NCBI RefSeq assembly: GCF_024700885.2
Contig: NZ_CP117016.1
Length of the DNA: 64,000 bases
DNA from: Escherichia coli
GTDB taxonomy: Bacteria > Pseudomonadota > Gammaproteobacteria > Enterobacterales > Enterobacteriaceae
Strand: one strand, 5' to 3'
In this document: one piece after another, positions 691 to 15,386 of the stretch
Position numbering within the stretch: the stretch's first letter is position 1
How the letters are laid out: each line of letters begins with the position of its first letter
Program-made: the position numbers and the translations under genes
The notes under the pieces: generated by a model
The model's database searches: none
What the model was told of the DNA's origin: nothing
What the model saw: the letters and a program-made list of their open reading frames with translations, nothing else

Positions 691-2370
691 GTGATGAAAT
701 TATTTAAATCAATTTTACTGATTGCCGCCTGTCACGCGGCGCAGGCCAGCGCGGCCATTGATATTAACGCTGACCCAAACCTTACAGGAGCCGCGCCGCT
801 TACCGGTATTCTGAACGGGCAACAGTCGGATACGCAAAACATGAGCGGCTTCGACAATACCCCGCCGCCCTCACCGCCGGTGGTAATGAGCCGTATGTTT
901 GGTGCTCAACTTTTCAACGGCACCAGCGCGGATAGCGGTGCGACGGTAGGATTCAACCCTGACTATATTCTGAATCCGGGTGATAGCATTCAGGTTCGCT
1001 TGTGGGGTGCGTTCACCTTTGATGGTGCGTTACAGGTTGATCCCAAAGGTAATATTTTCCTGCCGAACGTTGGTCCGGTGAAAGTTGCTGGCGTCAGTAA
1101 TAGTCAGCTAAATGCCCTGGTCACATCCAAAGTGAAGGAAGTATACCAGTCCAACGTCAACGTCTACGCCTCCTTATTACAGGCGCAGCCAGTAAAAGTG
1201 TACGTGACCGGATTTGTGCGTAATCCTGGTCTGTATGGCGGTGTGACGTCTGATTCGTTACTCAATTATCTGATCAAGGCTGGCGGCGTTGATCCAGAGC
1301 GCGGAAGTTACGTTGATATTGTGGTCAAGCGCGGTAACCGCGTGCGCTCCAACGTCAACCTGTACGACTTCCTGCTGAACGGCAAACTGGGGCTTTCGCA
1401 GTTCGCCGATGGTGACACCATCATCGTCGGGCCGCGTCAGCATACTTTCAGCGTTCAGGGCGATGTCTTTAACAGCTACGACTTTGAGTTCCGCGAAAGC
1501 AGCATTCCCGTAACAGAAGCGTTGAGCTGGGCGCGCCCTAAGCCTGGCGCGACTCACATTACGATTATGCGTAAACAGGGGCTGCAAAAACGCAGCGAAT
1601 ACTATCCGATCAGTTCTGCACCAGGCCGTATGTTGCAAAATGGCGATACCTTAATCGTGAGCACTGACCGCTATGCCGGCACCATTCAGGTGCGGGTTGA
1701 AGGCGCGCACTCTGGTGAACATGCCATGGTACTGCCTTATGGTTCCACTATGCGTGCGGTTCTGGAAAAAGTCCGCCCGAACAGCATGTCGCAGATGAAC
1801 GCGGTTCAGCTTTATCGCCCATCAGTAGCTCAGCGTCAGAAAGAGATGCTGAATCTCTCGCTGCAAAAACTGGAGGAAGCCTCACTTTCTGCCCAGTCAT
1901 CCACCAAAGAAGAAGCCAGCCTGCGAATGCAGGAAGCACAACTGATCAGCCGCTTTGTGGCGAAAGCACGCACCGTGGTTCCGAAAGGTGAAGTGATCCT
2001 CAACGAATCCAATATTGATTCTGTTCTGCTTGAAGATGGCGACGTCATCAATATTCCGGAGAAAACATCGCTGGTTATGGTTCATGGCGAAGTGCTGTTC
2101 CCGAACGCGGTGAGCTGGCAGAAGGGTATGACCACCGAGGATTACATCGAGAAATGTGGTGGCCTGACGCAGAAATCGGGTAACGCCAGAATTATCGTCA
2201 TTCGTCAGAACGGTGCAGCCGTCAACGCAGAAGATGTGGATTCACTCAAACCGGGCGATGAGATTATGGTTCTGCCGAAATATGAATCGAAAAACATTGA
2301 AGTTACCCGTGGTATTTCCACCATCCTCTATCAGCTGGCGGTGGGTGCAAAAGTGATTCTGTCTTTGTAA
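691..2370 (+). CDS. kpsD: Capsule polysaccharide export outer-membrane/periplasmic protein KpsD (Wza/OPX family)
   Basis: About 558 aa with an N-terminal signal peptide (MKLFKSILLIAACHAAQA); position between kpsE and kpsU. Confidence 0.9.
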   Translation: MMKLFKSILLIAACHAAQASAAIDINADPNLTGAAPLTGILNGQQSDTQNMSGFDNTPPPSPPVVMSRMFGAQLFNGTSADSGATVGFNPDYILNPGDSIQVRLWGAFTFDGALQVDPKGNIFLPNVGPVKVAGVSNSQLNALVTSKVKEVYQSNVNVYASLLQAQPVKVYVTGFVRNPGLYGGVTSDSLLNYLIKAGGVDPERGSYVDIVVKRGNRVRSNVNLYDFLLNGKLGLSQFADGDTIIVGPRQHTFSVQGDVFNSYDFEFRESSIPVTEALSWARPKPGATHITIMRKQGLQKRSEYYPISSAPGRMLQNGDTLIVSTDRYAGTIQVRVEGAHSGEHAMVLPYGSTMRAVLEKVRPNSMSQMNAVQLYRPSVAQRQKEMLNLSLQKLEEASLSAQSSTKEEASLRMQEAQLISRFVAKARTVVPKGEVILNESNIDSVLLEDGDVINIPEKTSLVMVHGEVLFPNAVSWQKGMTTEDYIEKCGGLTQKSGNARIIVIRQNGAAVNAEDVDSLKPGDEIMVLPKYESKNIEVTRGISTILYQLAVGAKVILSL

Positions 2371-2379
2371 GGAGTTGAA

Positions 2380-3120
2380 ATGAGCAAAGCAGTTATTGTC
2401 ATTCCGGCTCGTTATGGCTCATCGCGCCTGCCGGGTAAGCCACTGCTCGATATTGTTGGTAAACCGATGATCCAGCATGTTTACGAGCGTGCGTTACAGG
2501 TGGCGGGCGTTGCGGAAGTTTGGGTGGCAACAGACGATCCGCGTGTTGAACAGGCCGTGCAGGCATTTGGCGGGAAAGCCATCATGACGCGCAACGATCA
2601 TGAATCCGGCACCGATCGGCTGGTCGAGGTGATGCATAAAGTCGAGGCAGATATCTACATTAACCTGCAGGGCGACGAACCAATGATTCGCCCGCGGGAT
2701 GTAGAAACGCTGTTACAAGGAATGCGTGATGACCCCGCGTTGCCAGTGGCAACGCTATGCCACGCGATTTCTGCCGAAGAAGCTGCTGAGCCAAGCACGG
2801 TAAAAGTGGTGGTAAATACCCGCCAGGATGCGCTTTATTTCAGCCGTTCGCCTATTCCGTATCCGCGTAATGCTGAAAAAGCGCGCTACCTGAAACACGT
2901 TGGTATTTACGCTTATCGTCGCGATGTGCTGCAAAACTACAGCCAGTTACCGGAGTCCATGCAGGAGCAGGCAGAATCACTGGAGCAGCTGCGGTTGATG
3001 AGCGCGGGGATCAACATCCGCACATTTGAGGTTGCCGCAACCGGTCCGGGCGTCGACACCCCAGCATGCCTGGAAAAAGTGCGCGCCCTGATGGCACAGG
3101 AACTGGCTGAAAACGCATGA
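2380..3120 (+). CDS. kpsU: CMP-Kdo synthetase (3-deoxy-manno-octulosonate cytidylyltransferase), capsule-specific paralogue
   Basis: 246 aa; N-terminal [16 protein letters not shown] nucleotidyltransferase motif typical of KdsB/KpsU; RBS GGAG upstream. Confidence 0.9.
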
Positions 3121-5144
3121 TTGGCATTTTCTCGTCCGGTATCTGGCGTATTCCGCATCTGGAGAAATTTCTGGCGCAACCGTGCCAGAAACTTTCTCTG
3201 CTGCGCCCTGTTCCGCAAGAAGTTGATGCTATCGCCGTGTGGGGACATCGTCCCAGCGCGGCGAAACCAGTCGCCATCGCCAAAGCAGCGGGAAAACCCG
3301 TCATTCGTCTGGAAGATGGATTTGTGCGTTCGCTGGATCTTGGCGTCAATGGCGAGCCGCCGCTTTCTCTGGTGGTGGATGATTGTGGCATTTACTACGA
3401 TGCCAGCAAGCCTTCAGCACTGGAGAAACTGGTACAGGATAAAGCCGGAAATACAGCTCTGATAAGTCTGGCCAGAGAAGCGATGCACACCATCGTGACC
3501 GGGGATTTGTCGAAATATAACCTGGCACCTGCGTTTGTGGCTGATGAGTCAGAACGTTCAGACATCGTTCTGGTTGTCGATCAGACATTTAATGATATGT
3601 CAGTGACGTATGGCAATGCTGGCCCGCATGAGTTTGCTGCCATGCTGGAAGCCGCGATGGCGGAAAATCCTCAAGCCGAAATTTGGGTGAAGGTGCACCC
3701 AGATGTACTGGAAGGAAAGAAAACAGGTTATTTCGCTGATCTGCGCGCCACGCAACGAGTACGTTTGATTGCTGAGAATGTCAGCCCGCAGTCGCTGTTG
3801 CGACACGTTTCCCGGGTTTACGTCGTGACCTCCCAGTATGGCTTTGAAGCCTTGCTGGCAGGAAAACCAGTAACATGTTTCGGCCAGCCCTGGTATTCAG
3901 GTTGGGGCTTAACCGACGATCGTCATCCACAGTCCGCTTTGTTATCTGCCCGACGCGGTTCTGCCACGCTGGAGGAACTTTTTGCCGCTGCATACCTGCG
4001 TTACTGTCGCTATATCGATCCGCAAACGGGAGAAGTAAGCGATATATTTACTGTGCTGCAATGGCTGCAATTACAACGTCGACATCTGCAACAGCGTAAT
4101 GGTTATTTATGGGCGCCAGGCTTAACGCTGTGGAAGTCAGCGATCCTGAAACCTTTCTTGCAAACGGCAACAAACCGGCTGAGTTTTTCACGTCGTTGTA
4201 CTGCGGCGAGCGCCTGCGTGGTATGGGGTGTAAAGGGAGAACAGCAATGGCGAGCCGAAGCGCAACGAAAATCACTGCCGTTATGGCGAATGGAAGATGG
4301 TTTTCTGCGTTCATCCGGACTTGGCTCTGACCTTTTGCCGCCGCTATCGTTGGTCCTGGATAAACGCGGGATCTACTATGACGCCACGCGCCCCAGCGAC
4401 CTGGAAGTGTTGCTTAATCACAGCCAGTTAACACTGGCGCAGCAGATGCGAGCTGAGAAGTTGCGGCAACGGGTGGTTGAAAGCAAACTGAGCAAATACA
4501 ACCTAGGGGCCGATTTCTCTCTGCCTGCCGAAGCCCAAGATAAAAAAATCATCCTGGTGCCGGGTCAGGTAGAAGACGATGCCTCAATTAAAACAGGCAC
4601 TGTGTCGATTAAGAGCAACCTTGAGTTATTACGCACAGTACGCGAGCGCAATCCGCACGCCTACATTGTTTATAAACCGCACCCGGATGTACTGGTGGGG
4701 AATCGCAAGGGCAATATTCCGACAGAACTAATTGCTGAACTCGCTGATTATCAGGCACTGGACGCAGATATTATTCAATGCATTCAGCGCGCAGATGAAG
4801 TGCACACCATGACATCATTGTCCGGGTTTGAAGCGTTATTACATGGCAAGCAAGTTCATTGTTACGGCCTGCCCTTCTATGCCGGTTGGGGTTTAACCGT
4901 TGATGAACATCACTGCCCGCGCCGCGAACAAAAATTAACGTTAGCAGATTTGATCTATCAGGCGTTGATTGTTTATCCAACCTATATCCACCCAACACGG
5001 CTACAACCTATTACGGTTGAAGAGGCGGCGGAATATTTGATCCAGACGCCGCGCAAGCCGATGTTTATTACCCGAAAAAAAGCGGGACGAGTCATACGCT
5101 ATTACCGCAAATTAATTATGTTCTGCAAGGTCAGATTTGGCTAA
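3117..5144 (+). CDS. kpsC: Capsule beta-Kdo transferase KpsC (tandem duplicated domains)
   Basis: 675 aa; internal duplication visible in the translation (two copies of ...GFVRS.GLG...PPLSLV.D..GIYYDA... and ...[12 protein letters not shown]...); start overlaps kpsU stop (ATGA). Confidence 0.9.
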
Positions 5145-5178
5145 ACAATTTCATAGTTGACTATTACACAAATTATTT

Positions 5179-6414
5179 ATGCAAGGTAATGCACTAACCG
5201 TTTTATTATCCGGTAAAAAATATCTGCTATTGCAGGGGCCAATGGGACCCTTTTTCAGTGATGTTGCCGAGTGGCTAGAGTCATTAGGTCGTAACGCTGT
5301 GAATGTAGTATTCAACGGCGGGGATCGTTTTTACTGCCGTCATCGACAATACCTGGCTTACTACCAAACGCCGAAAGAGTTTCCCGGATGGTTACGGGAT
5401 CTCCATCGGCAATATGACTTTGATACCATCCTCTGCTTTGGTGACTGCCGCCCATTGCACAAAGAAGCAAAACGCTGGGCAAAGTCGAAAGGGATCCGCT
5501 TTCTGGCATTTGAGGAAGGATATTTACGCCCGCAATTTATTACCGTTGAAGAAGGCGGAGTGAACGCATATTCATCGCTACCGCGCGATCCGGATTTTTA
5601 TCGTAAGTTACCAGATATGCCTGCGCCGCACGTTGAGAACTTAAAACCTTCAACGATGAAACGCATTGGCCATGCGATGTGGTATTACCTGATGGGCTGG
5701 CATTACCGTCATGAGTTCCCTCGCTACCGCCACCACAAATCATTTTCCCCCTGGTATGAAGCTCGTTGCTGGGTTCGTGCGTACTGGCGCAAGCAACTTT
5801 ACAAGGTAACACAGCGTAAAGTATTGCCGCGGTTAATGAATGAGCTGGATCAGCGTTATTATCTTGCCGTTTTGCAGGTGTATAACGATAGCCAGATTCG
5901 TAACCACAGCAATTATAACGATGTGCGAGATTATATTAATGAAGTCATGTACTCATTTTCGCGTAAAGCGCCAAAAGAAAGTTATTTGGTGATCAAGCAC
6001 CATCCAATGGATCGTGGTCACAGACTCTATCGACCATTAATTAAACGGTTGAGTAAGGAATATGGCTTAGGTGAGCGCGTCATTTATGTGCACGATCTCC
6101 CGATGCCGGAATTGTTACGCCACGCAAAAGCGGTGGTGACAATTAACAGTACGGCGGGGATATCTGCGCTGATTCACAACAAACCACTCAAAGTGATGGG
6201 CAATGCCCTGTACGACATCAAAGGCTTGACGTATCAAGGGCATTTGCACCAGTTCTGGCAGGCCGATTTTAAACCGGATATGAAACTGTTTAAGAAGTTT
6301 CGGGGGTATTTATTGGTGAGGACGCAGATTAATGGGGTTTATTATGGTGATAGATGTTTTGAACATGATATTAAGGTGGATAAGGATTCTTGGAGTCTTA
6401 CACGTCAAGTTTGA
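5179..6414 (+). CDS. kpsS: Capsule beta-Kdo transferase KpsS
   Basis: About 400 aa, same fold family as the KpsC domains; last gene of region 1; the precise start codon is uncertain. Confidence 0.85.
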   Translation: MQGNALTVLLSGKKYLLLQGPMGPFFSDVAEWLESLGRNAVNVVFNGGDRFYCRHRQYLAYYQTPKEFPGWLRDLHRQYDFDTILCFGDCRPLHKEAKRWAKSKGIRFLAFEEGYLRPQFITVEEGGVNAYSSLPRDPDFYRKLPDMPAPHVENLKPSTMKRIGHAMWYYLMGWHYRHEFPRYRHHKSFSPWYEARCWVRAYWRKQLYKVTQRKVLPRLMNELDQRYYLAVLQVYNDSQIRNHSNYNDVRDYINEVMYSFSRKAPKESYLVIKHHPMDRGHRLYRPLIKRLSKEYGLGERVIYVHDLPMPELLRHAKAVVTINSTAGISALIHNKPLKVMGNALYDIKGLTYQGHLHQFWQADFKPDMKLFKKFRGYLLVRTQINGVYYGDRCFEHDIKVDKDSWSLTRQV

Positions 6415-6574: not shown

Positions 6575-7711
6575 TTAATACAAACTCTCTAACTTATCTT
6601 TTTTAATTTTTGTATCTTCTTTTAAATACTCACACAGCCAGCGAATACGTTGCTTAAAACTCATATTTTCAAGCGATGAAAATGAATATGACAAAATGTA
6701 TTTTTGAATATACTCAGGACAAGACTCAATATTTAATATGTCATCGCCAACGTGAAATAAATTATGTTTATAATAAGATAATATCTTTTTAGGAATAAAA
6801 ACATTTTCTTTGCAATTACCATTGACTATAACACCGCATGGTATTTTACGAGAATGAAACTGAACTTCCATTGCTGATATATCTGTTAATGCATATGATA
6901 CTTTTATATTATTAGTTATCTTTCTTCGTAATTTAATTAGGGGGAATCGAGTTCCTTCAATGAATCCATTTGTTATTTTATAAACAATTAAACCAGCTTT
7001 CGTGAAAAGCCTAATACTCTCATTAAGAATGGCTTTGTATTTATGATCTCGATGACCTATGTTTGGATGTGCTTGTATATAAAGAATATTTATTTTTTTG
7101 ATTTTACAAAATTTTATTATCTTATGTGTGGTTTCATTATTTATCGAACTATAATTTTCTTCTGGGATTCCCCCCTCCCATGTTGGAGCATATACAGCAG
7201 AACGAGAATTTACATCAAACTGAAAATAATTATGTCCAATGAAAGTATTTCCTAATTTAATTACTTTCCCATTTCTAATATCGAATGGTGTAAAAATTCC
7301 GGACTTAAGGTATCTATCAATACCTACATCTCCAGAAGTGACTACGTAATCATAAATTTTTATAATCGGTTTTACAGAAGCAAGTTTATGGCTTTCACCA
7401 TGTGTAACAAAAACGTGAATCAGGTTTCTATTTGCCACAATACGACAATTTGATTGAGCGTTGAATAAATAGAAAACAATTTTACCATTATTAAAAACCA
7501 AGTCTGAATTTTTCTTAATAAATTTAAATGAAATATTATGTTTATTAAACTCCTCAGTAAATTTTTTTTCTATTTCTTTATAGTACTTACAATACACACT
7601 TATGCAATCCTCCACATTGAATACTTGTGCCTGAAAATAACGAATTAACTGTTCCAAAGCTCCTTCAATTTTTGTATCAATATATAAATAGTATAGGTTA
7701 TTAACAGACAC
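6575..7711 (-). CDS. Region 2 TagF-like CDP-polyol phosphotransferase (teichoic-acid-type)
   Basis: 378 aa; contains the YAPTWEG motif characteristic of CDP-glycerol/ribitol phosphotransferases (TagF/TagB family); AT-rich codon usage. Confidence 0.6.
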   Translation of the reverse strand: MSVNNLYYLYIDTKIEGALEQLIRYFQAQVFNVEDCISVYCKYYKEIEKKFTEEFNKHNISFKFIKKNSDLVFNNGKIVFYLFNAQSNCRIVANRNLIHVFVTHGESHKLASVKPIIKIYDYVVTSGDVGIDRYLKSGIFTPFDIRNGKVIKLGNTFIGHNYFQFDVNSRSAVYAPTWEGGIPEENYSSINNETTHKIIKFCKIKKINILYIQAHPNIGHRDHKYKAILNESIRLFTKAGLIVYKITNGFIEGTRFPLIKLRRKITNNIKVSYALTDISAMEVQFHSRKIPCGVIVNGNCKENVFIPKKILSYYKHNLFHVGDDILNIESCPEYIQKYILSYSFSSLENMSFKQRIRWLCEYLKEDTKIKKDKLESLY

Positions 7712-7727
7712 AATATATACCTTTTAT

Positions 7728-9101
7728 TTATCGCCCATCTTTTCTAACGTCTATAATAAGACCCGTGCTATTAGCTCCTAATACTTTGAGGCTTGTCAGG
7801 GCAACATCTCTAGGATCTAATAATAACTCTGCAGGTTCAATGCCAAAGTTGATGGTACGCATTGGAGTTGCAGTTCGTTCAGGGTTAATACAGTTTACTT
7901 TAATATTTTCAGATGACCATTCCTCAGCTATTGCTTGTGTAAAGTTTACGATAGCAGCTTTTGATGAGGAATAAAGAGCATAATATGAACGGCCACGCGT
8001 GTATGAACTTGAAGTAAAATTAAGTAGCATCCCTGAAGATTTCTTCAAATATTGCTTGGATGCCATCGCTATATTTACAGCCCCAATAAAATTTATATTT
8101 ATTAGAGTATGAACTTCTTCATTTGTTAACATATCAATAGGTTTTTTTATCAAAACCCCAGCAGTATTAATGATATAATCGATGCAACCTAACTTTTTCT
8201 CCATTTGAGCAAGATAGTTTTTTACACACTCAATATCAACAATATCAACATTATTGAAGCTACGGCTAGCAATTTCAACATTCGCGCCTAATAAAATAGC
8301 TGCTTTCTTTATCTCAAGACCAATCCCGCTGTTTCCACCAAATATAATTATATTTTTACCTTTGATATAATCGAGATTATCACCAGTGTTAAATGAAATT
8401 TTATTTGCTTCCTGAAGAAGCTTCTCAGCAATAAAAAGATCAATTGGGTGTGTAACTTTCATGTTTGATTCAGCACCAACCACAGTTGCTACACGTACAC
8501 CAGGTACCATTGAGCGTACAACACCACAATCACAAGTAAAACTAAATCGCTGAGCATTGATGGCACGTTGATAGGCCTGTTTCAGCGTCCCTAATTTAAA
8601 TGCCTGAGGGGTCTGGCCCCGGCGCATTACAGCCCTGTTTGGAATATTAGAAATACATCCATCGTCATACACTTCGACGAGCGTATCAGCGGATGGAATT
8701 ACAACATCTACAGCCTCAAAATTTCTTAAAGCATCAATGCAATTATTAATAATTGATTCATTAATTAATGGTCTTACTGCATCATGAAGTAAAATATTAG
8801 AATTGTTATCTTCTCCCTCAAGACCTTGTAATGCAGAATAGGTTGAATCAAATCGCTCTTTTCCACCATTAAAAACTTTTGTAACTTTTTTCCATTGATT
8901 TTTTTTTACAAATTTCCAAATTAGGTCCACATAACTTGGGTGAGATACGATAATAATTTCATCAATATTCAATGATTTTTCAAAAGCTTCTACTGTGTAC
9001 TCAATTACAGCCTTACCTGCTAATTTTGTAAATTGTTTCGGAAGTGTACCGCCAAATCTTGCCCCCATACCCCCCGATAGAATAACAGCAATATTTTTCA
9101 T
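7728..9101 (-). CDS. Bifunctional CDP-polyol synthase: N-terminal IspD/TarI-like cytidylyltransferase fused to C-terminal short-chain dehydrogenase/reductase (Haemophilus Bcs1-like CDP-ribitol synthase architecture)
   Basis: N-terminus MKNIAVILSGGMGARFG..LPKQF (cytidylyltransferase); C-terminal half has the SDR glycine-rich NAD(P) motif IIIFGGNSGIGLE. The track ORF begins 30 codons upstream, but the ATG at 9101 is preceded by a GGTGGA RBS and matches the family N-terminus. Confidence 0.7.
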   Translation of the reverse strand: MKNIAVILSGGMGARFGGTLPKQFTKLAGKAVIEYTVEAFEKSLNIDEIIIVSHPSYVDLIWKFVKKNQWKKVTKVFNGGKERFDSTYSALQGLEGEDNNSNILLHDAVRPLINESIINNCIDALRNFEAVDVVIPSADTLVEVYDDGCISNIPNRAVMRRGQTPQAFKLGTLKQAYQRAINAQRFSFTCDCGVVRSMVPGVRVATVVGAESNMKVTHPIDLFIAEKLLQEANKISFNTGDNLDYIKGKNIIIFGGNSGIGLEIKKAAILLGANVEIASRSFNNVDIVDIECVKNYLAQMEKKLGCIDYIINTAGVLIKKPIDMLTNEEVHTLININFIGAVNIAMASKQYLKKSSGMLLNFTSSSYTRGRSYYALYSSSKAAIVNFTQAIAEEWSSENIKVNCINPERTATPMRTINFGIEPAELLLDPRDVALTSLKVLGANSTGLIIDVRKDGR

Positions 9102-9201
9102 TTTTCCACCATATAATTTTATAAATGCAATAAATATAAGAATCATTAAATATGACACAACATGATATTTAAAATGTTGTGTCATACACAAACAAATAAA
9201 A

Positions 9202-12200
9202 TTAATGAATAATCTTCTTAGATAGCTTAATTATTACATTACCCAGCACTGGCTTTAATATTGGATTAAATGCCGTTTTGCCAGCAAGTCTAACAATTTT
9301 TTTATTTGAATCAGAGAAGAACATTTCAGGATTTCGTTCAAGTTTATTGAGAAGTCTTATCTTTCTGCTGTCAGAAGTTTGTGCTGCTAAATGTTGATTA
9401 ATTTTAGCCGGTTCTTTTATCTTTACTTTTGAAGTATTAGTTGGTAGTACTTTTTGCTTGGCGTTACTAGGTTTAGCAGATAAGGCTTTAGGGTTTTTAA
9501 GATATTCTTGATATTCTTTTTTTATCGAAGGTGTTGATCTTGCTAAACTCATTTTAATAGATCTTGTAAAAGCACCAACTGGTTTTCCTTGTTTTAATAA
9601 GGCTAAAGATTCTGAAGTGATTGCTGGTGCAAATTCCCTTAATGCTCCCAGAGATGCTTCAGAGTATAACAAATGAGCCATTGAGTTTACTAATACCGGA
9701 TCATCTTGATGATCTCTATACCATTCAAAAGCAAAGCTTGAGAAGTGACGCTCAATTGTGCTTACATCAGATGTGAAGGGTAAGCTATAAAATTCGTTCA
9801 CGAAATTTTTCAAGTACTTACCTAGAGACCAATAGAGTTCAGCATCAAACCTAGCCCGAGCAATAACAGGTACAATTTTTTTTAATTCTCGCTTATAGCC
9901 CGTGACAGTACCATGTGGACAATTAGCAAATATAGCCTCGACAGGAATGAGTGATATATTATTAGTGCTATAATTTATTCTAATATCATTATCAATGGAT
10001 GGGAGAATACTTCGATAATAATAGAATACGCATTCGGAAGGCTTATCAAAAGCATTATCTATAAGTTTTCTTAAACATGTCTGTGTATACCCTCTGGCCC
10101 AATATTCTACGAATGCATATTTTTCATCCGGATTGATTTCTTGTTTGATATAATCAATAACGATCTTTCTCTCTTCTTTAGCCTTCTCAATCAAATAATC
10201 ATGATACTTTGTGGATTTGCTAAAAAACTCTCTGAGTGCAACAAGTTCTGCAGGGCTAATTTTAGAGGATTTGTTGAGCCCAGTTTCTGGAAAAAGCTTT
10301 TGAAATAAATTATGACTGATACTTAATGAAGAAATTAACTTATCATAATTATCAACACCAACCAAATTACCAAAATTAGAGAAAAACTCATCATCAATAC
10401 TTTCAATCATTGCAGGAACACGCCATGCTCGACGAGAACCATAAAAATATTTCGTTTTGATATTCAGTTTTTTCAAACTAACATATGCGTCAGCAATTTC
10501 TTTAAGAAAATGTCCATCTCGCGACACAAAATATAATGTTTCAATCCCTCTATCAATGGCATCCCTAATACACCAAGCAACATATGGAACCATATAACCT
10601 GAGACATGCGCGTAACAGAAATAATCTTTTTCATTAATGCTATTAAAACGCATTCGAGATAACAGACCGGTCAGAAGATAAGAATTGTAATTTCGTATTT
10701 TATTAATCAAAGCAGTTTCATAAGCATTGATTTTCGGTATTTTATGTATTTGAGGTTTTATTCCTAATTCCTTAGCTTTTGTTCCATCTGATGTAGCATT
10801 ATCACCATAATGAATCCATTCTTTAAAGCGCCAAGGAGAATGGTCTTTATAAACCCTAAGATATAACTGCTGGCTTGCTTTTTGCACACCATACTCAGAG
10901 GATAGATACAACGGCAACTTATTTAATAAAGGACTTACGTGAGCCAGCATATTCGAAATAACTTCTTTAGGTAGATACATGTCCGATATTAATACAACCG
11001 TTTCATTCTCTTTAACCAGTTGCTCGGCTTTTTTCACCATCTCATCTATGGGAATTACGTTTTCATATTCAGCCTGTACTTCCCAATCCATTAGCTTAGT
11101 AATTTGACTGTCATTTAGATTATATACTGATTGTATTCTTGAGAATATGTCTCGATAGCTAATTTCATAATGTCCAATGGTCTTGATCAATAACTCTCGG
11201 CAATTTGCTTCTGCTTGCATCCTGATATTAACATAATCAGTATGGAAGATTTCAGGGAACCCCTCATCAGAAGCTTTTATTAATTCCATAACCTTATAGA
11301 AAATACCTTTTGGAATTAAGCATTTACGTCCAATAAGAGTATCAAAAACATCAAAACTATAAAACGTTGGCAAAACCCCTTTATTACCAATTTTAAATTG
11401 ATTCGTTTGATTAATTATATTTTCAAATGTATTTTCATCATCATACGACCAAAATAACTCTTTTATTTTTTCAAGATTATTATCAGAATAAGTTTGATAT
11501 TCATCAATAGCATTAATTAACTCACCAAAACTTTGACACATTTTTCCTGATGTGTGCGATTGATAATCATAAAGCATGATGTGTTTTTCATCGTCAAAAT
11601 CAAAAATATATCTAATGAAATTCTTAACACCTGCAGATACCAAATCATAATAAATTGACGAATAATCTATTATTGCCAGATCAATTTTATTGAAAATTTC
11701 ATATATATCATTCTTATTATCCCAGAAAATAATATTTCTATATTGACCCACCTGTTTTTGAAGTGTTTTAAAATAAAAATCATTAGATATTTCAGGATGC
11801 AATTTAATAATTAGGCATAAATTATTTTTCTCTAGTGTTTTAGATAAAATATTTATATCCTTAATCGCCAAATAGAGGAAATTCTTAGGATTTTTCTCTC
11901 TAAATGTCGGCGCGTACAATGCTAGCTTCGTATCTTTAGGCAACCCAGCCTGAGAAATAATATCATGATTATAAGTAACTACAGGCTCGTATAATGATTG
12001 ATAAATGCAACGTGGGTAACCACCTCTTATAATTTGGTCATCAGTTAAATCCAGCTGTTCTTTAAAATGTTTCTCCATAAATGGAGACGTTACCAAAAAA
12101 CACATATTATTGCTGAATTGCTCATTATATGTTATGTGCTTTTTAGCGATTCTTTGATATAAATATTCTCTATCAGCCTTCTTCTCTATTTGCTTTAATC

Positions 12201-12525
12201 CAACACCATGATACAAATTTAATATTTTAGTATTTAACAACTCTTTTGGGTATATTTCCTTACAATGCTCATTTACATAAACACCAGCAGCATTTAATAA
12301 TTGAGCACCTTCTTTTGATTTAAAATGACATGCATTAAAACCTAACGATTTAATATAGTCTACATTTTTCTGATCACCACTGATATAACAAGCAAAAATA
12401 TCAGGTCGATAGTTTGAAATATATATAAACAGATATTTCACATTCCCTGTAAATAGACCGGCACTATTAAATAACCAGATGTTATCTTTAGTATAATTAT
12501 TAATTACATAGTTAATATCTTGCAT
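9202..12525 (-). CDS. Multi-domain capsule polymerase: TagF-like polyol-phosphate transferase domain, HAD-like phosphatase domain, a further C-terminal domain and a lysine-rich tail
   Basis: 1107 aa; LYAPTFR motif (TagF family) in the N-terminal third; FDVFDTLIGRK (HAD motif I) and HYGDNATSDG (HAD motif III/IV-like) mid-protein; basic Lys-rich C-terminus; AT-rich. Confidence 0.6.
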   Translation of the reverse strand: MQDINYVINNYTKDNIWLFNSAGLFTGNVKYLFIYISNYRPDIFACYISGDQKNVDYIKSLGFNACHFKSKEGAQLLNAAGVYVNEHCKEIYPKELLNTKILNLYHGVGLKQIEKKADREYLYQRIAKKHITYNEQFSNNMCFLVTSPFMEKHFKEQLDLTDDQIIRGGYPRCIYQSLYEPVVTYNHDIISQAGLPKDTKLALYAPTFREKNPKNFLYLAIKDINILSKTLEKNNLCLIIKLHPEISNDFYFKTLQKQVGQYRNIIFWDNKNDIYEIFNKIDLAIIDYSSIYYDLVSAGVKNFIRYIFDFDDEKHIMLYDYQSHTSGKMCQSFGELINAIDEYQTYSDNNLEKIKELFWSYDDENTFENIINQTNQFKIGNKGVLPTFYSFDVFDTLIGRKCLIPKGIFYKVMELIKASDEGFPEIFHTDYVNIRMQAEANCRELLIKTIGHYEISYRDIFSRIQSVYNLNDSQITKLMDWEVQAEYENVIPIDEMVKKAEQLVKENETVVLISDMYLPKEVISNMLAHVSPLLNKLPLYLSSEYGVQKASQQLYLRVYKDHSPWRFKEWIHYGDNATSDGTKAKELGIKPQIHKIPKINAYETALINKIRNYNSYLLTGLLSRMRFNSINEKDYFCYAHVSGYMVPYVAWCIRDAIDRGIETLYFVSRDGHFLKEIADAYVSLKKLNIKTKYFYGSRRAWRVPAMIESIDDEFFSNFGNLVGVDNYDKLISSLSISHNLFQKLFPETGLNKSSKISPAELVALREFFSKSTKYHDYLIEKAKEERKIVIDYIKQEINPDEKYAFVEYWARGYTQTCLRKLIDNAFDKPSECVFYYYRSILPSIDNDIRINYSTNNISLIPVEAIFANCPHGTVTGYKRELKKIVPVIARARFDAELYWSLGKYLKNFVNEFYSLPFTSDVSTIERHFSSFAFEWYRDHQDDPVLVNSMAHLLYSEASLGALREFAPAITSESLALLKQGKPVGAFTRSIKMSLARSTPSIKKEYQEYLKNPKALSAKPSNAKQKVLPTNTSKVKIKEPAKINQHLAAQTSDSRKIRLLNKLERNPEMFFSDSNKKIVRLAGKTAFNPILKPVLGNVIIKLSKKIIH

Positions 12526-12784
12526 TTATAAAACGCTCTCTGAATTTTTTACTTATGATAAACACCACATAATTGTGGTAATATTATATTTAACTAAAAG
12601 TGTGAATATTTATAGTGGAGTTTATAATTCAAATCATGACTTATAGCCTATTATCTTATTTATTTAAATCTGAATCATGTACGCATATAAAAGACAAACG
12701 ATTTATTTTAAAGAAAAAACAAATAAAGGAAATTATAACTTACAGTAATTAGAAGACTATTTAGTCTGATTGTTATATAAAATC

Positions 12785-13441
12785 TTATTCTTGTTTATAC
12801 TCATCGATCCCCTCCTGAACATCCTCATAAAAACTAACCACATTGTCATCCTTAAACACAATCGCCACATCACAAAACTCTTTCAATGAATTCAAACTAT
12901 GTGAAACCATTAAAAAACTAGATTCTTTATGCCTTTCTTTAAACAATTGAGCGCATTTTTCTTTAAACCTGGCATCACCGACTGCAGTTACTTCATCGAC
13001 GATATAATAATCAAACTTAAATGCCATGCTTAAACCAAAGCCTAAACGCGATCGCATACCAGATGAGTAAGTTTTAATCGGCATATCGAAGTACTTACCG
13101 AGTTCGGCAAATTCTTCGACAAACTCAATTTTCTCTTTCAGCTCTTCTTGCTTCGCGTATAACCGCGCAACAAATTTTACGTTTTCGCGTCCGGTTAAAC
13201 TTCCCTGAAATCCACCTGCGAGGCCGACTGGCCATGATATTGTTTTATTAGTGATGATCTTTCCACTGTCGGGGCGGTCAATGCCGCCAATCATTCTCAG
13301 TAACGTTGATTTACCCGCTCCGTTGCGACCAATAAAGGCAACACTTTTTCCTGAAGGGATTTCAATATTTAAATCCTTAAAGACATAATGTCGACCCGCT
13401 GGCGTGCGATATGACTTCGTCAAATTTTCAATCTTAATCAT
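12785..13441 (-). CDS. kpsT: Capsule export ABC transporter ATP-binding protein KpsT
   Basis: 218 aa; Walker A GRNGAGKST, ABC signature YSSGMRSRL, Walker B YYIVDE; overlaps the kpsM stop. Confidence 0.92.
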   Translation of the reverse strand: MIKIENLTKSYRTPAGRHYVFKDLNIEIPSGKSVAFIGRNGAGKSTLLRMIGGIDRPDSGKIITNKTISWPVGLAGGFQGSLTGRENVKFVARLYAKQEELKEKIEFVEEFAELGKYFDMPIKTYSSGMRSRLGFGLSMAFKFDYYIVDEVTAVGDARFKEKCAQLFKERHKESSFLMVSHSLNSLKEFCDVAIVFKDDNVVSFYEDVQEGIDEYKQE

Positions 13442-14214
13442 GATGTCAGCATTGCCTCTTCACGCGTTCGGTATAAAGCCAGACCGATGAACAGGGTGAC
13501 CAGAGTGAACATTGCAAGGTAGTTCAGACTAACGCCTTCGCTGATATAGCCAGGCATAACTGCCTCGCGGCTTAACTCTACGACATGCACTAATGGGTTC
13601 CAGAGTAGATATGACCAGTATTGCTTTGGAATTGAGTGCAGAGGGAACATGATGCAGGAGATGAAATACAGCGGCTTAAGCAGTATCGGCAGGACCTTTT
13701 GCATTTCAGGGAAAGTCTTACCAACGACCATGAATATTAAGCCGACGCCACATGAAAGAATGATTAACAAACTCCAGGTGAGCACAAGTTGTAAAAAATT
13801 TGTTATCTCGAAATATTCGCCTGCCATCCTGACAATGAGCATAAGCAGAATATAAACAGCAACGTAAATCAGCGTCTCAAGCAGGGCGCGCGCAATGATC
13901 GTATCGATGGGTTTTACTGGGCGATAATTAAACAGCCCCAGGTTCGCTTCAATAGCACTTACAGAACGTTTGCTGATACTGCTAAAGATAAAAAAGGGAA
14001 TCAGGCCATTAAGTAAAAACACCGGGAATGAGATGTCTGGCATCGTGCGGTGCATAATGTAACCAAAAATGCCCAACAGTATCAGCAAATGCGCAGAGGG
14101 TTCGAGAATCGCCCACAGATATCCCAGACGGAACTTACCAAAGCGTGTTCGTATTTCTCGTAGAAATAATGCCTCTACGGTGACTTTCTGGACTTCAAAT
14201 CCACTTCTTGCCAT
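13438..14214 (-). CDS. kpsM: Capsule export ABC transporter permease KpsM
   Basis: Polytopic ABC-2 type permease; start chosen at MARSGFEVQK (about 258 aa) rather than the longer track ORF, because an ops-like element lies inside the longer ORF. Confidence 0.88.
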   Translation of the reverse strand: MARSGFEVQKVTVEALFLREIRTRFGKFRLGYLWAILEPSAHLLILLGIFGYIMHRTMPDISFPVFLLNGLIPFFIFSSISKRSVSAIEANLGLFNYRPVKPIDTIIARALLETLIYVAVYILLMLIVRMAGEYFEITNFLQLVLTWSLLIILSCGVGLIFMVVGKTFPEMQKVLPILLKPLYFISCIMFPLHSIPKQYWSYLLWNPLVHVVELSREAVMPGYISEGVSLNYLAMFTLVTLFIGLALYRTREEAMLTS

Positions 14215-14243
14215 TTGATGATGTGATCCTAATCTCTTCAGGT

Positions 14244-14255
14244 ACGCTACCGCCC
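14244..14255 (-). promoter_or_regulatory. ops-like element (RfaH recruitment site, JUMPstart) in the region 3 leader about 30 nt upstream of the kpsM start
   Basis: Minus strand reads GGCGGTAGCGTA, matching the ops core GGCGGTAG at the position expected ahead of kpsM. Confidence 0.65.
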
Positions 14256-14349
14256 TTGGCTTAACAGCTACCAATACACTGGAGGTAATGCTTATTTGTA
14301 ACTGGATAAAATTTACTCAGACGGTTTGACCTTTTTAATAGCCGCAAAA

Positions 14350-14616
14350 AATTTCAGCAGAAATTATTTCCGCAGGGATAAATAGATCTATTTCCGTCTC
14401 GTTTCTTCTAATCCATTCTTCAGGCATGAATGTATTCGGTCTTCTGGTAATTTCAGAAAACTGGCCGTTTTAGAATGTAAAGTTAATTTCTCAGGAAATT
14501 ATTTCTACCTCTTTTTGCTTAACCAATATGGCTTGAAAAAGACGTAAAGCAGCATGCGTTCTGGATTACTCCGGAACACACTTATTCAAAATGGGCTGCT
14601 AATTTCGCAAGAAATT
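14350..14616. repeat. Three copies of a palindrome AATTTC-N4-GAAATT, each followed by ATTT(C/T), in the kps region 3 upstream/leader region; degenerate half-copies continue to about 15070
   Basis: Read directly: aatttcagcagaaatt (about 14350), aatttctcaggaaatt (about 14485), aatttcgcaagaaatt (about 14601); half-sites near 14449, 15000 and 15058. Confidence 0.7.
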
Positions 14617-15386
14617 ATTTTTTACTATTACTGTTAACTACTTGATTATAATACCACCTATGAATTTTATGCGTAACAATACCTGCAATCTGTTTCAAAC
14701 CAGAACACACGCGATTGATTACCAATAAATTGTTCACCGAGAAACTATTTCCCTATTTAAAATTCACTCGTGTACTTCTTATTTATATCTACAGCCCCCT
14801 CTTTACAGCCATATTTGTGATTTATATCACATTTAAATGGTGTTATTTAAGTTGCATCAATAATCCCGAAGGTAATTATTTTCGTCGATTAAAATATACA
14901 TCTTGATTATTTTGTGTATTTATTTTAACCAGTGTTACAACCAACACCATCCCTCAGTAGATATACCTGAGCAGACATTTCTTAAAATTGACGAATAGTT
15001 TCCCTGGAAATTATTATGCTTATTTGAAATTCCCTTTCTGATTATCTCCAGTAATTTTACTAATTTCCAGGCTACACAAAATACAGATCACATAAGAATT
15101 ATCCTATATGTTTTGACCTATCAATTGTTACTCAATGATTTATTACAACTATTAATAATCATAATGTGTCAAAACACTTAAGCATCTTTACAGTCTTAGA
15201 AAGGTGTCGATTAACGAAGGCTACATGGTGAAAAACAGGTTCCTTCAGTGTTACCGAATATTCCGTGGTGGGCTGGAGGGAGATAATTCTTGCTACATCG
15301 AAACTCAGCCCGGTGAGCGGGTTTGACAGTTCCGCACTCACCATTGGGCTAAGGGTTATCAGGTGGGGTTAAGGAAATGGCAATAC

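Follow-up and report, generated by a model that had tools for sequence, protein, structure and literature searches.

The element that lies upstream of kpsM in the Escherichia coli group 2 capsule cluster analysed here is, with high confidence, a JUMPstart/ops element in the leader that precedes kpsMT (region 3), and KpsM starts at the ATG at position 14214. The literature on E. coli group 2 capsules already describes such an element, its position and its function, and what is reported below is the correct recognition of a known feature. The whole stretch of DNA that was analysed (64,000 nt, hereafter the window) includes the whole of a group 2 capsule (kps) cluster, with the type II secretion genes yghD/gsp as its neighbours. 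The layout is that of a group 2 capsule: kpsD, kpsU, kpsC and kpsS are on the plus strand (691-6414), and the minus strand carries kpsM, kpsT and three genes of low GC content. The features that matter for the argument are the following.

6575..12525, minus strand: serotype-specific region 2, three co-directional genes, 28-34% GC.
12526..12784, minus strand: gap between kpsT and region 2, 259 nt, AT-rich, with a weak hairpin and then a T-run at 12580..12563.
12785..13441, minus strand: kpsT, ABC transporter ATPase, 218 aa, whose ATG overlaps the kpsM stop codon (ATGA).
13438..14214, minus strand: kpsM, ABC-2 type capsule exporter permease, 258 aa, beginning MARSGFEVQ; it is the PGAP CDS in the identical strain MLI114.
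14215..14242, minus strand: non-coding spacer between ops and the ATG, 28 nt (25-34 nt in other genera).
14243..14254, minus strand: ops 12-mer GGCGGTAGCGTA, read on the non-template (coding) strand, identical to the consensus GGCGGTAGCGTG at 11 of 12 positions, with A at position 12.
14243..14281, minus strand: JUMPstart element, 39 nt, CAGTGTATTGGTAGCTGTTAAGCCAAGGGCGGTAGCGTA, matching Rfam RF01707.
14256..14274, minus strand: putative JUMPstart hairpin, from the Rfam consensus structure.
14272..14274, minus strand: in-frame TTG that opens a 278-aa ORF and with which the JUMPstart stem begins; not the real start.
14282..15060, minus strand: long AT-rich part of the region 3 leader that precedes JUMPstart, extending to the PR3 start expected from literature distances.

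The minus strand of the window reads …CAGTGTATTGGTAGCTGTTAAGCCAAGGGCGGTAGCGTAcctgaagagattaggatcacatcatcaaATGGCAAGAAGT…, in which the ops 12-mer forms the 3′ end of a full-length JUMPstart. The Rfam covariance model RF01707 matches with 58.5 bits (the gathering score is 35) over model positions 1-38 of 38, with an E value of 2.3e-12 for a 2-kb region and of 7.2e-11 for the whole 64-kb window. Like other members of the family, the element is a full-length match well over the gathering score and lies just 5′ of a polysaccharide gene cluster; it differs from the model by one extra loop base and by a final A instead of G. The 12-nt ops consensus GGCGGTAGnnTG, whose invariant core consists of positions 1-8 and T11, fits at positions 1-11. 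The first-pass annotation, made from the sequence alone, had seen an ops-like site on the minus strand about 30 nt before the ATG of a 258-aa KpsM, and direct reading bears this out: 28 nt separate the last base of ops from the A of the ATG, and the first base of ops is 40 nt from it. The element and kpsM are on the same strand, and kpsT and then region 2 follow downstream. Over 2 kb around the site, the window shows 100% identity to E. coli MLI114; of 5426 complete E. coli genomes, 1706 have a match to this stretch, and the 120 nt around the site have a match in 1681 E. coli genomes.

This geometry is that of the known systems. According to a review of group 2 capsules, the promoter PR3 is 741 bp 5′ of the kpsM initiation codon and ops 28 bp 5′ of it; RfaH-mediated read-through is essential for region 2, and the RfaH dependence is stated for K5 (PMC8960920). 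In so far as the K5/K1 system is summarised in that review (Stevens et al. 1997, via PMC8960920), the region 3 ops is at the same distance from kpsM as in the window, 28 bp, and the two also share a long PR3 leader, kpsMT followed by a co-directional region 2, and a KpsM of 258 aa. The difference lies in region 2, which is in the window of a polyol-phosphate type, with a glycerophosphotransferase-family protein and an IspD/SDR fusion, and is neither the K1 nor the K5 set.

The most direct evidence from another strain concerns CFT073 (K2). Hustmyer et al. (2022) detected the RfaH ChIP-seq signal through the kps unit, and the RNAP occupancy of this unit falls towards background at its distal end when rfaH is deleted (PMC9765446). 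The CFT073 kps ops, GGCGGTAGCATA, is 40 nt before the 777-nt c3698 (kpsM) (PMC9765446 Data set S2). The site in the window shares with it the position at -40 relative to a 777-nt kpsM, the A at position 12, the location in a leader and the non-template strand; the two differ in that the CFT073 site has A at position 10, the window having GGCGGTAGCGTA, and the U1 and E69 alleles have the CFT073 form. The exact 12-mer of the window, GGCGGTAGCGTA, is present at CFT073 c1882, where it is bound by RfaH (PMC9765446). From the near identity in sequence and geometry with the orthologous sites, we infer that RfaH binding and the RfaH dependence of region 2 hold in this strain as well. The proposal of the first-pass annotation that the site fits RfaH-dependent antitermination of a region 3-region 2 transcript thus agrees, by analogy, with the full JUMPstart on the coding strand, its place in the kpsMT leader and the geometry reported for CFT073 and K5.

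The mechanism would then be as follows. RNA polymerase would start at PR3, by the literature distances some 0.74-0.85 kb upstream, and transcribe the leader. When it reaches ops, the non-template strand GGCGGTAGCGTA would be exposed in the transcription bubble and form a small hairpin recognised by RfaH, which would load there and remain on the polymerase. The loaded RfaH would suppress pausing, Rho-dependent termination and silencing by H-NS/StpA, so that the modified polymerase would pass kpsM, kpsT and the gap of 259 nt and enter the AT-rich region 2. Translation of KpsM would begin at the ATG at 14214 and give 258 aa, the TTG at 14274 being left unused. The refolded KOW domain of RfaH may help to recruit a ribosome to the first gene after ops: a ribosome-recruitment proposal for RfaH is mentioned by Zuber et al. 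(PMC5995543), and the weak Shine-Dalgarno sequence of kpsM would fit this idea.

Several features of the locus bear on this scheme. Using the literature distances, the PR3 start is expected near 14955 (741 nt) or near 15060 (846 nt, an estimate from CFT073 RNA-seq); a promoter-like site, TGGAAA-17-GATAAT, is found at 15069..15041 on the minus strand, a position that disagrees with the 741-nt distance. The GC content is 28-37% in region 2 and the leader, versus 50-57% in the flanks. Within region 3, kpsT adjoins kpsM and is translationally coupled to it through the ATGA overlap. The gap lies between kpsT and region 2, so that read-through must cross 12526..12784, and it is presumably the point where RfaH matters. 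The hairpin of the gap (12563-12580) is palindromic (ACCACATAATTGTGGT) and has a terminator-like score on both strands. Another terminator-like hairpin followed by a T-run (GCGGAAATAATTTCTGC TGAAATTTTT) is present in the leader at 14357-14373 on the minus strand, about 100 nt 5′ of ops, and hence before the point where RfaH could load. Its local fold has a z score of -2.95 in the allele of the window; the divergent allele Nord8 does not retain it (z -0.29).

It may be asked whether JUMPstart acts also, or instead, as an RNA element, the UUGGU/GCCAA hairpin of the transcript being regulatory by protein binding or in an sRNA-like manner. The Rfam model includes a 5-bp hairpin, which in the window consists of a 5′ arm UUGGU (14274..14270), a loop (14269..14261) and a 3′ arm GCCAA (14260..14256). 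In an alignment of 10 JUMPstarts from 8 genera or contexts, 96% of the cells of the arms pair, one pair is changed on both sides and two pairs on one side only, and conservation extends to the 5′ half of JUMPstart, outside ops. On the contrary, covariation in the hairpin of these 10 JUMPstarts is not above that of column shuffles, 175-217 of 500 of which reach the observed values. The hairpin is not the minimum free energy structure either: the folding of the JUMPstart 39-mer is no better than that of shuffled sequences (z +0.85), and the leader segment 14200-14400 has a folding z score of -0.73. Thermodynamically, nothing supports a structured RNA at JUMPstart, and the view of the RF01707 family as an RNA structure is supported here neither by folding nor by covariation. 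Moreover, the documented mechanism is the recognition of non-template DNA (PMC5995543). A regulatory role of the transcript hairpin is therefore improbable, if less so than the alternatives considered below, and recognition of ops as DNA by RfaH is the reading that we retain.

The position of the kpsM start determines whether the element lies in a leader or in a gene. The ATG at 14214..14212 opens an ORF from 14214 to 13438, 777 nt in length, that is, 258 aa and a stop codon. Its product matches Pfam ABC2_membrane (PF01061) with an E value of 1.9e-15 and the KpsM structure PDB 8tsh_C with an E value of 9e-61, in an alignment that begins at residue 20 of the 278-aa form. The longest ORF is open from the TTG at 14274 to 13438, codes for 278 aa and, as the first-pass annotation had pointed out and as the ORF list and direct reading confirm, runs through ops (…KPRAVAYL…). 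The N-terminal peptide of this form would begin MVAVKPRAVAYLK. The first-pass annotation had preferred the shorter start, a preference upheld by the RefSeq calls, by distant homology, by the loci of other genera and by the codon-position signature.

The comparison with annotated kpsM starts that the first-pass annotation had suggested gives a CDS of 777 nt in 8 of 8 RefSeq/PGAP records (MLI114 and seven further alleles). The exact 258-aa protein is present on at least 1000 contigs, versus 6 for the exact 278-aa protein, and the length is 258 aa in 106 of the best 120 closest clusters at 90% identity. When the 278-aa form was used as the query against 1.84 billion representatives clustered at 50% identity, 150 matches were listed; among these, 126 are full-length homologues with less than 60% identity, of which 81 have an alignment that starts at query residues 20-24, and none of the 126 aligns before residue 14. 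Subject residue 1 is aligned with query residue 21 in 11 of the 150 matches listed, several of which are close fragments. The N-termini of distant homologues (MARTGLEVQ, MARTSLEIQ, MSRTPFQIQ, MRRSPLAVQ, MKRSSLEIQ) follow the pattern M[ARKS]R[ST]…[EQ][VI]Q. Distant metagenomic KpsM homologues (P0019, P0022 and P0030, 44-51% identity) were considered as well; they have no JUMPstart upstream and are silent on the arrangement of ops and start.

Seven loci of other Enterobacterales were compared, from Pantoea, Ewingella, Yersinia bercovieri, Phytobacter, Rahnella, Enterobacter asburiae and one further assembly, whose KpsM proteins are 69-86% identical to that of the window. All seven have an Rfam JUMPstart (42-58 bits) that ends 25-34 nt before the ATG of MARSG[F/L]EVQ, an N-terminus found in 8 of 8 loci when the window is included. 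As in the window, kpsT and then variable biosynthesis genes follow. Unlike the window, these loci have the canonical …GCGTG, spacers that are unrelated in sequence, and no in-frame start codon 5′ of ops (0 of 7); an in-frame stop codon lies between ops and the ATG in 5 of the 7. The spacers measure 25, 27, 27, 29, 31 and 34 nt in the other genera and 28 nt in the window, and the differences are not multiples of 3. In the alignment of the 8 kpsM loci, the variable sites of codons 2-40 are distributed as 15/6/37 over codon positions 1/2/3. On the contrary, the 24 nt directly 5′ of the ATG are all variable (8/8/8) and have no periodicity, and the ops 12-mer is almost invariant. The coding signature of kpsM begins at codon 2.

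These results weigh heavily against a KpsM of 278 aa that would start at the TTG at 14274 and have ops/JUMPstart within its coding region, a possibility which we consider very remote. What speaks for it is, first, that the ORF is open, and that the TTG and the open 20-codon extension are kept in 10 of 10 Escherichia alleles examined (8 from E. coli, E69 and E. whittamii). In the alignment of the 8 E. coli alleles (about 86-100% identity), no variant breaks the frame of the extension: the sole indel is 5′ of JUMPstart, and the 4 variable sites from the TTG to the ATG keep the frame. Since the extension is open in all of them, Escherichia sequences alone are uninformative on the choice between the long and the short start. 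An open extension within Escherichia is unsurprising, because about 38% of 20-codon stretches, (61/64)^20, are free of stop codons by chance. The conservation of the TTG requires no coding explanation either, because this TTG is the start of the JUMPstart stem (UUGGU, Rfam consensus cUGGu), and there is no Shine-Dalgarno pairing 5′ of it (the best duplex is at -0.7 kcal/mol). The true start has a Shine-Dalgarno-like AGGA at 14230..14227, 12 nt before the ATG, which is weak and distant, with a best anti-SD duplex at -4.0 kcal/mol. Residues 1-13 of the long form are unmatched by any homologue among the matches listed, and the other-genus loci (n=7), with their in-frame stops or their lack of an in-frame start 5′ of ops, their spacer lengths and the absence of a codon-position pattern in the 24 nt before the ATG, speak against it.

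Two further points can be raised in favour of the long form. It has been deposited in GenBank on 6 contigs (EGD9304444.1 and TXU54848.1 among others), where the additional residues correspond to 14215-14274 of the window on the minus strand. In addition, ops-like sites can fall in or beside coding sequence: CFT073 has 34 intragenic ops-like sites (PMC9765446). In E. coli VTB96935v (locus L017, 2500-2538), a JUMPstart with 36 of 37 positions identical to that of the window heads the O-antigen cluster at the junction of galF and the O185 O-antigen genes. The PGAP start of the first glycosyltransferase gene of this locus is a GTG at ops positions 10-12, and there is no ATG between that GTG and the conserved N-terminal region, which means that an annotated start can overlap ops. 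The argument of the first-pass annotation, that an ORF which crosses ops is to be rejected, is a heuristic and not a rule. The short kpsM start is right because independent evidence agrees on it, and not because of the read-through argument.

The choice of the start has practical consequences, and the value of the finding is mainly there, in the annotation of the kpsM start and in the design of constructs. kpsM should be annotated from the ATG at 14214, with 258 aa. The 278-aa call swallows JUMPstart/ops, and any deletion or fusion that takes the long start as its boundary would delete or disturb the site at which RfaH loads and on which the expression of region 2 depends. The primers for the deletion of the capsule cluster in two papers begin exactly at TTGGTAGCTGTTAAGCC…, which is the start of the long ORF (PMC12361893, PMC13172090), so that those deletions end inside JUMPstart; it appears that the 278-aa call guided the design of the primers in both PMC12361893 and PMC13172090. 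That a long mis-start is present in public annotation is a second, minor point of this work.

That the motif is a chance match without function at the kps locus is effectively refuted already: the 11-nt core pattern taken alone is expected 0.37 times per window, but the match covers the full 38 positions of JUMPstart (E 7e-11 for the window), the segment from the hairpin to the ATG is nearly invariant (4 variable sites in 8 aligned E. coli kps alleles) and its 120-nt surroundings recur in the 1681 genomes mentioned above, a JUMPstart is also found 5′ of kpsM in the seven other-genus loci, and the orthologous site is bound by RfaH in vivo. The bare short motif is statistically unremarkable, since GGCGGTAGNNT, the core pattern, occurs once in the window versus 0.37 expected, and 33 of 100 shuffles contain at least one match; the full JUMPstart context is far beyond chance.

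The octamer GGCGGTAG occurs 5 times in the window, the ops site included, versus 1.2 expected; none of 100 shuffles reaches 5, and all occurrences are on the minus strand. The other four (5724, 34687, 50092 and 57167) were rejected as ops sites: they lack T11 and the JUMPstart context. Three of them fall in an ORF of the strand that carries them, and the fourth is antisense to kpsS. The three that are inside minus-strand ORFs are in one common frame (xxG GCG GTA Gxx), and the excess of the octamer is probably an effect of codon usage.

The only base of ops that departs from the consensus is the last one: the window has …GCGTA, with A at position 12, instead of …GCGTG. The first-pass annotation had considered that the final two bases differ (TA rather than TG); this is correct for A12, but T11 agrees with the consensus. 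Positions 1-11 are the same in the window as in the canonical ops sites of rfaQ/waaQ, wzx/rfb, wza and tssH (GGCGGTAGCGTG), which have G at position 12; each of these sites, like that of the window, belongs to the leader of a long operon that was acquired horizontally and is silenced by H-NS. According to Zuber et al. (PMC5995543), the pause-inducing dinucleotide T11-G12 is common to the validated E. coli targets, and its G12 occupies position +1 of the consensus pause. The substitution G12C abolishes the pause at U11 and retains the recruitment of RfaH (PMC5995543), and A12 is therefore compatible with function. As a matter of fact, the RfaH-bound kps and c1882 sites of CFT073 both have A12 (PMC9765446). 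By analogy with them, A12 can be regarded as a variant of the ops signal, of a kind known to be natural and functional, and gives no ground for excluding the site. Since A12 is not the G12 common to the validated targets, it may be that the ops pause is weaker here.

In a sample of 18 kps sites, A12 is found in 11 of 11 group 2 kps sites of Escherichia (the 8 E. coli alleles, E69, E. whittamii and, from the literature, CFT073) and G12, in the canonical …GCGTG, in 7 of 7 kpsM-linked JUMPstarts of the other Enterobacterales genera. A contig scan with GGCGGTAGNNTNNNTGAAGAG, a pattern of 16 specified bases for which about 140 chance matches are estimated in 298 Gb, returned, as real kps leaders among the matches listed, only those of E. 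coli E69 and E. whittamii. To judge from these sequences, A12 looks like a derived variant that is specific to the kps lineage of Escherichia. This is a small addition, and nothing in it is new for the established model of RfaH in capsule expression. One could go further and propose that A12 is a derived, lineage-specific tuning of the ops signal, which seems to us doubtful. If it were so, A12 could weaken the pause and make the loading of RfaH, and thereby the expression of region 2 and of the capsule, more sensitive to the level of RfaH or to the elongation rate, for example with temperature. The same pattern may equally be read as a neutral substitution that has become fixed.

Other variants of the element were encountered. 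In E. coli AR435 (locus L018, 2494-2531), a JUMPstart 5′ of wzi, in a group 1-type capsule locus, has an ops that ends in …GCGTC (C12), and the opposite strand is annotated with a 40-aa "hypothetical protein" across the element. A kpsM of E. marmotae type (locus L146, 1425-1500; 88% identical) adjoins an upstream glycerophosphotransferase gene, and Rfam finds no JUMPstart there; the upstream sequence resembles a decayed JUMPstart (…ttggttttagaaagttaggggaatagtgaaccta… versus …ttggtagctgttaagccaagggcggtagcgtacctg…), and the protein still begins MVRSGFEVQ.

Regarding region 2 itself, one gene codes for a 1107-aa protein of the CDP-glycerol glycerophosphotransferase family (Glyphos_transf in Pfam) and another for a 487-aa IspD-like cytidylyltransferase fused to a short-chain dehydrogenase; the 378-aa region 2 protein has no Pfam match. 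Judged by its predicted products, this set of genes points to a K antigen that contains a polyol phosphate. Last, we note that elsewhere in the window, at 29056-29277 on the plus strand, there is a full-length match (299 bits) to the Rfam C0719 sRNA (RF00117), which is unrelated to ops and kpsM.
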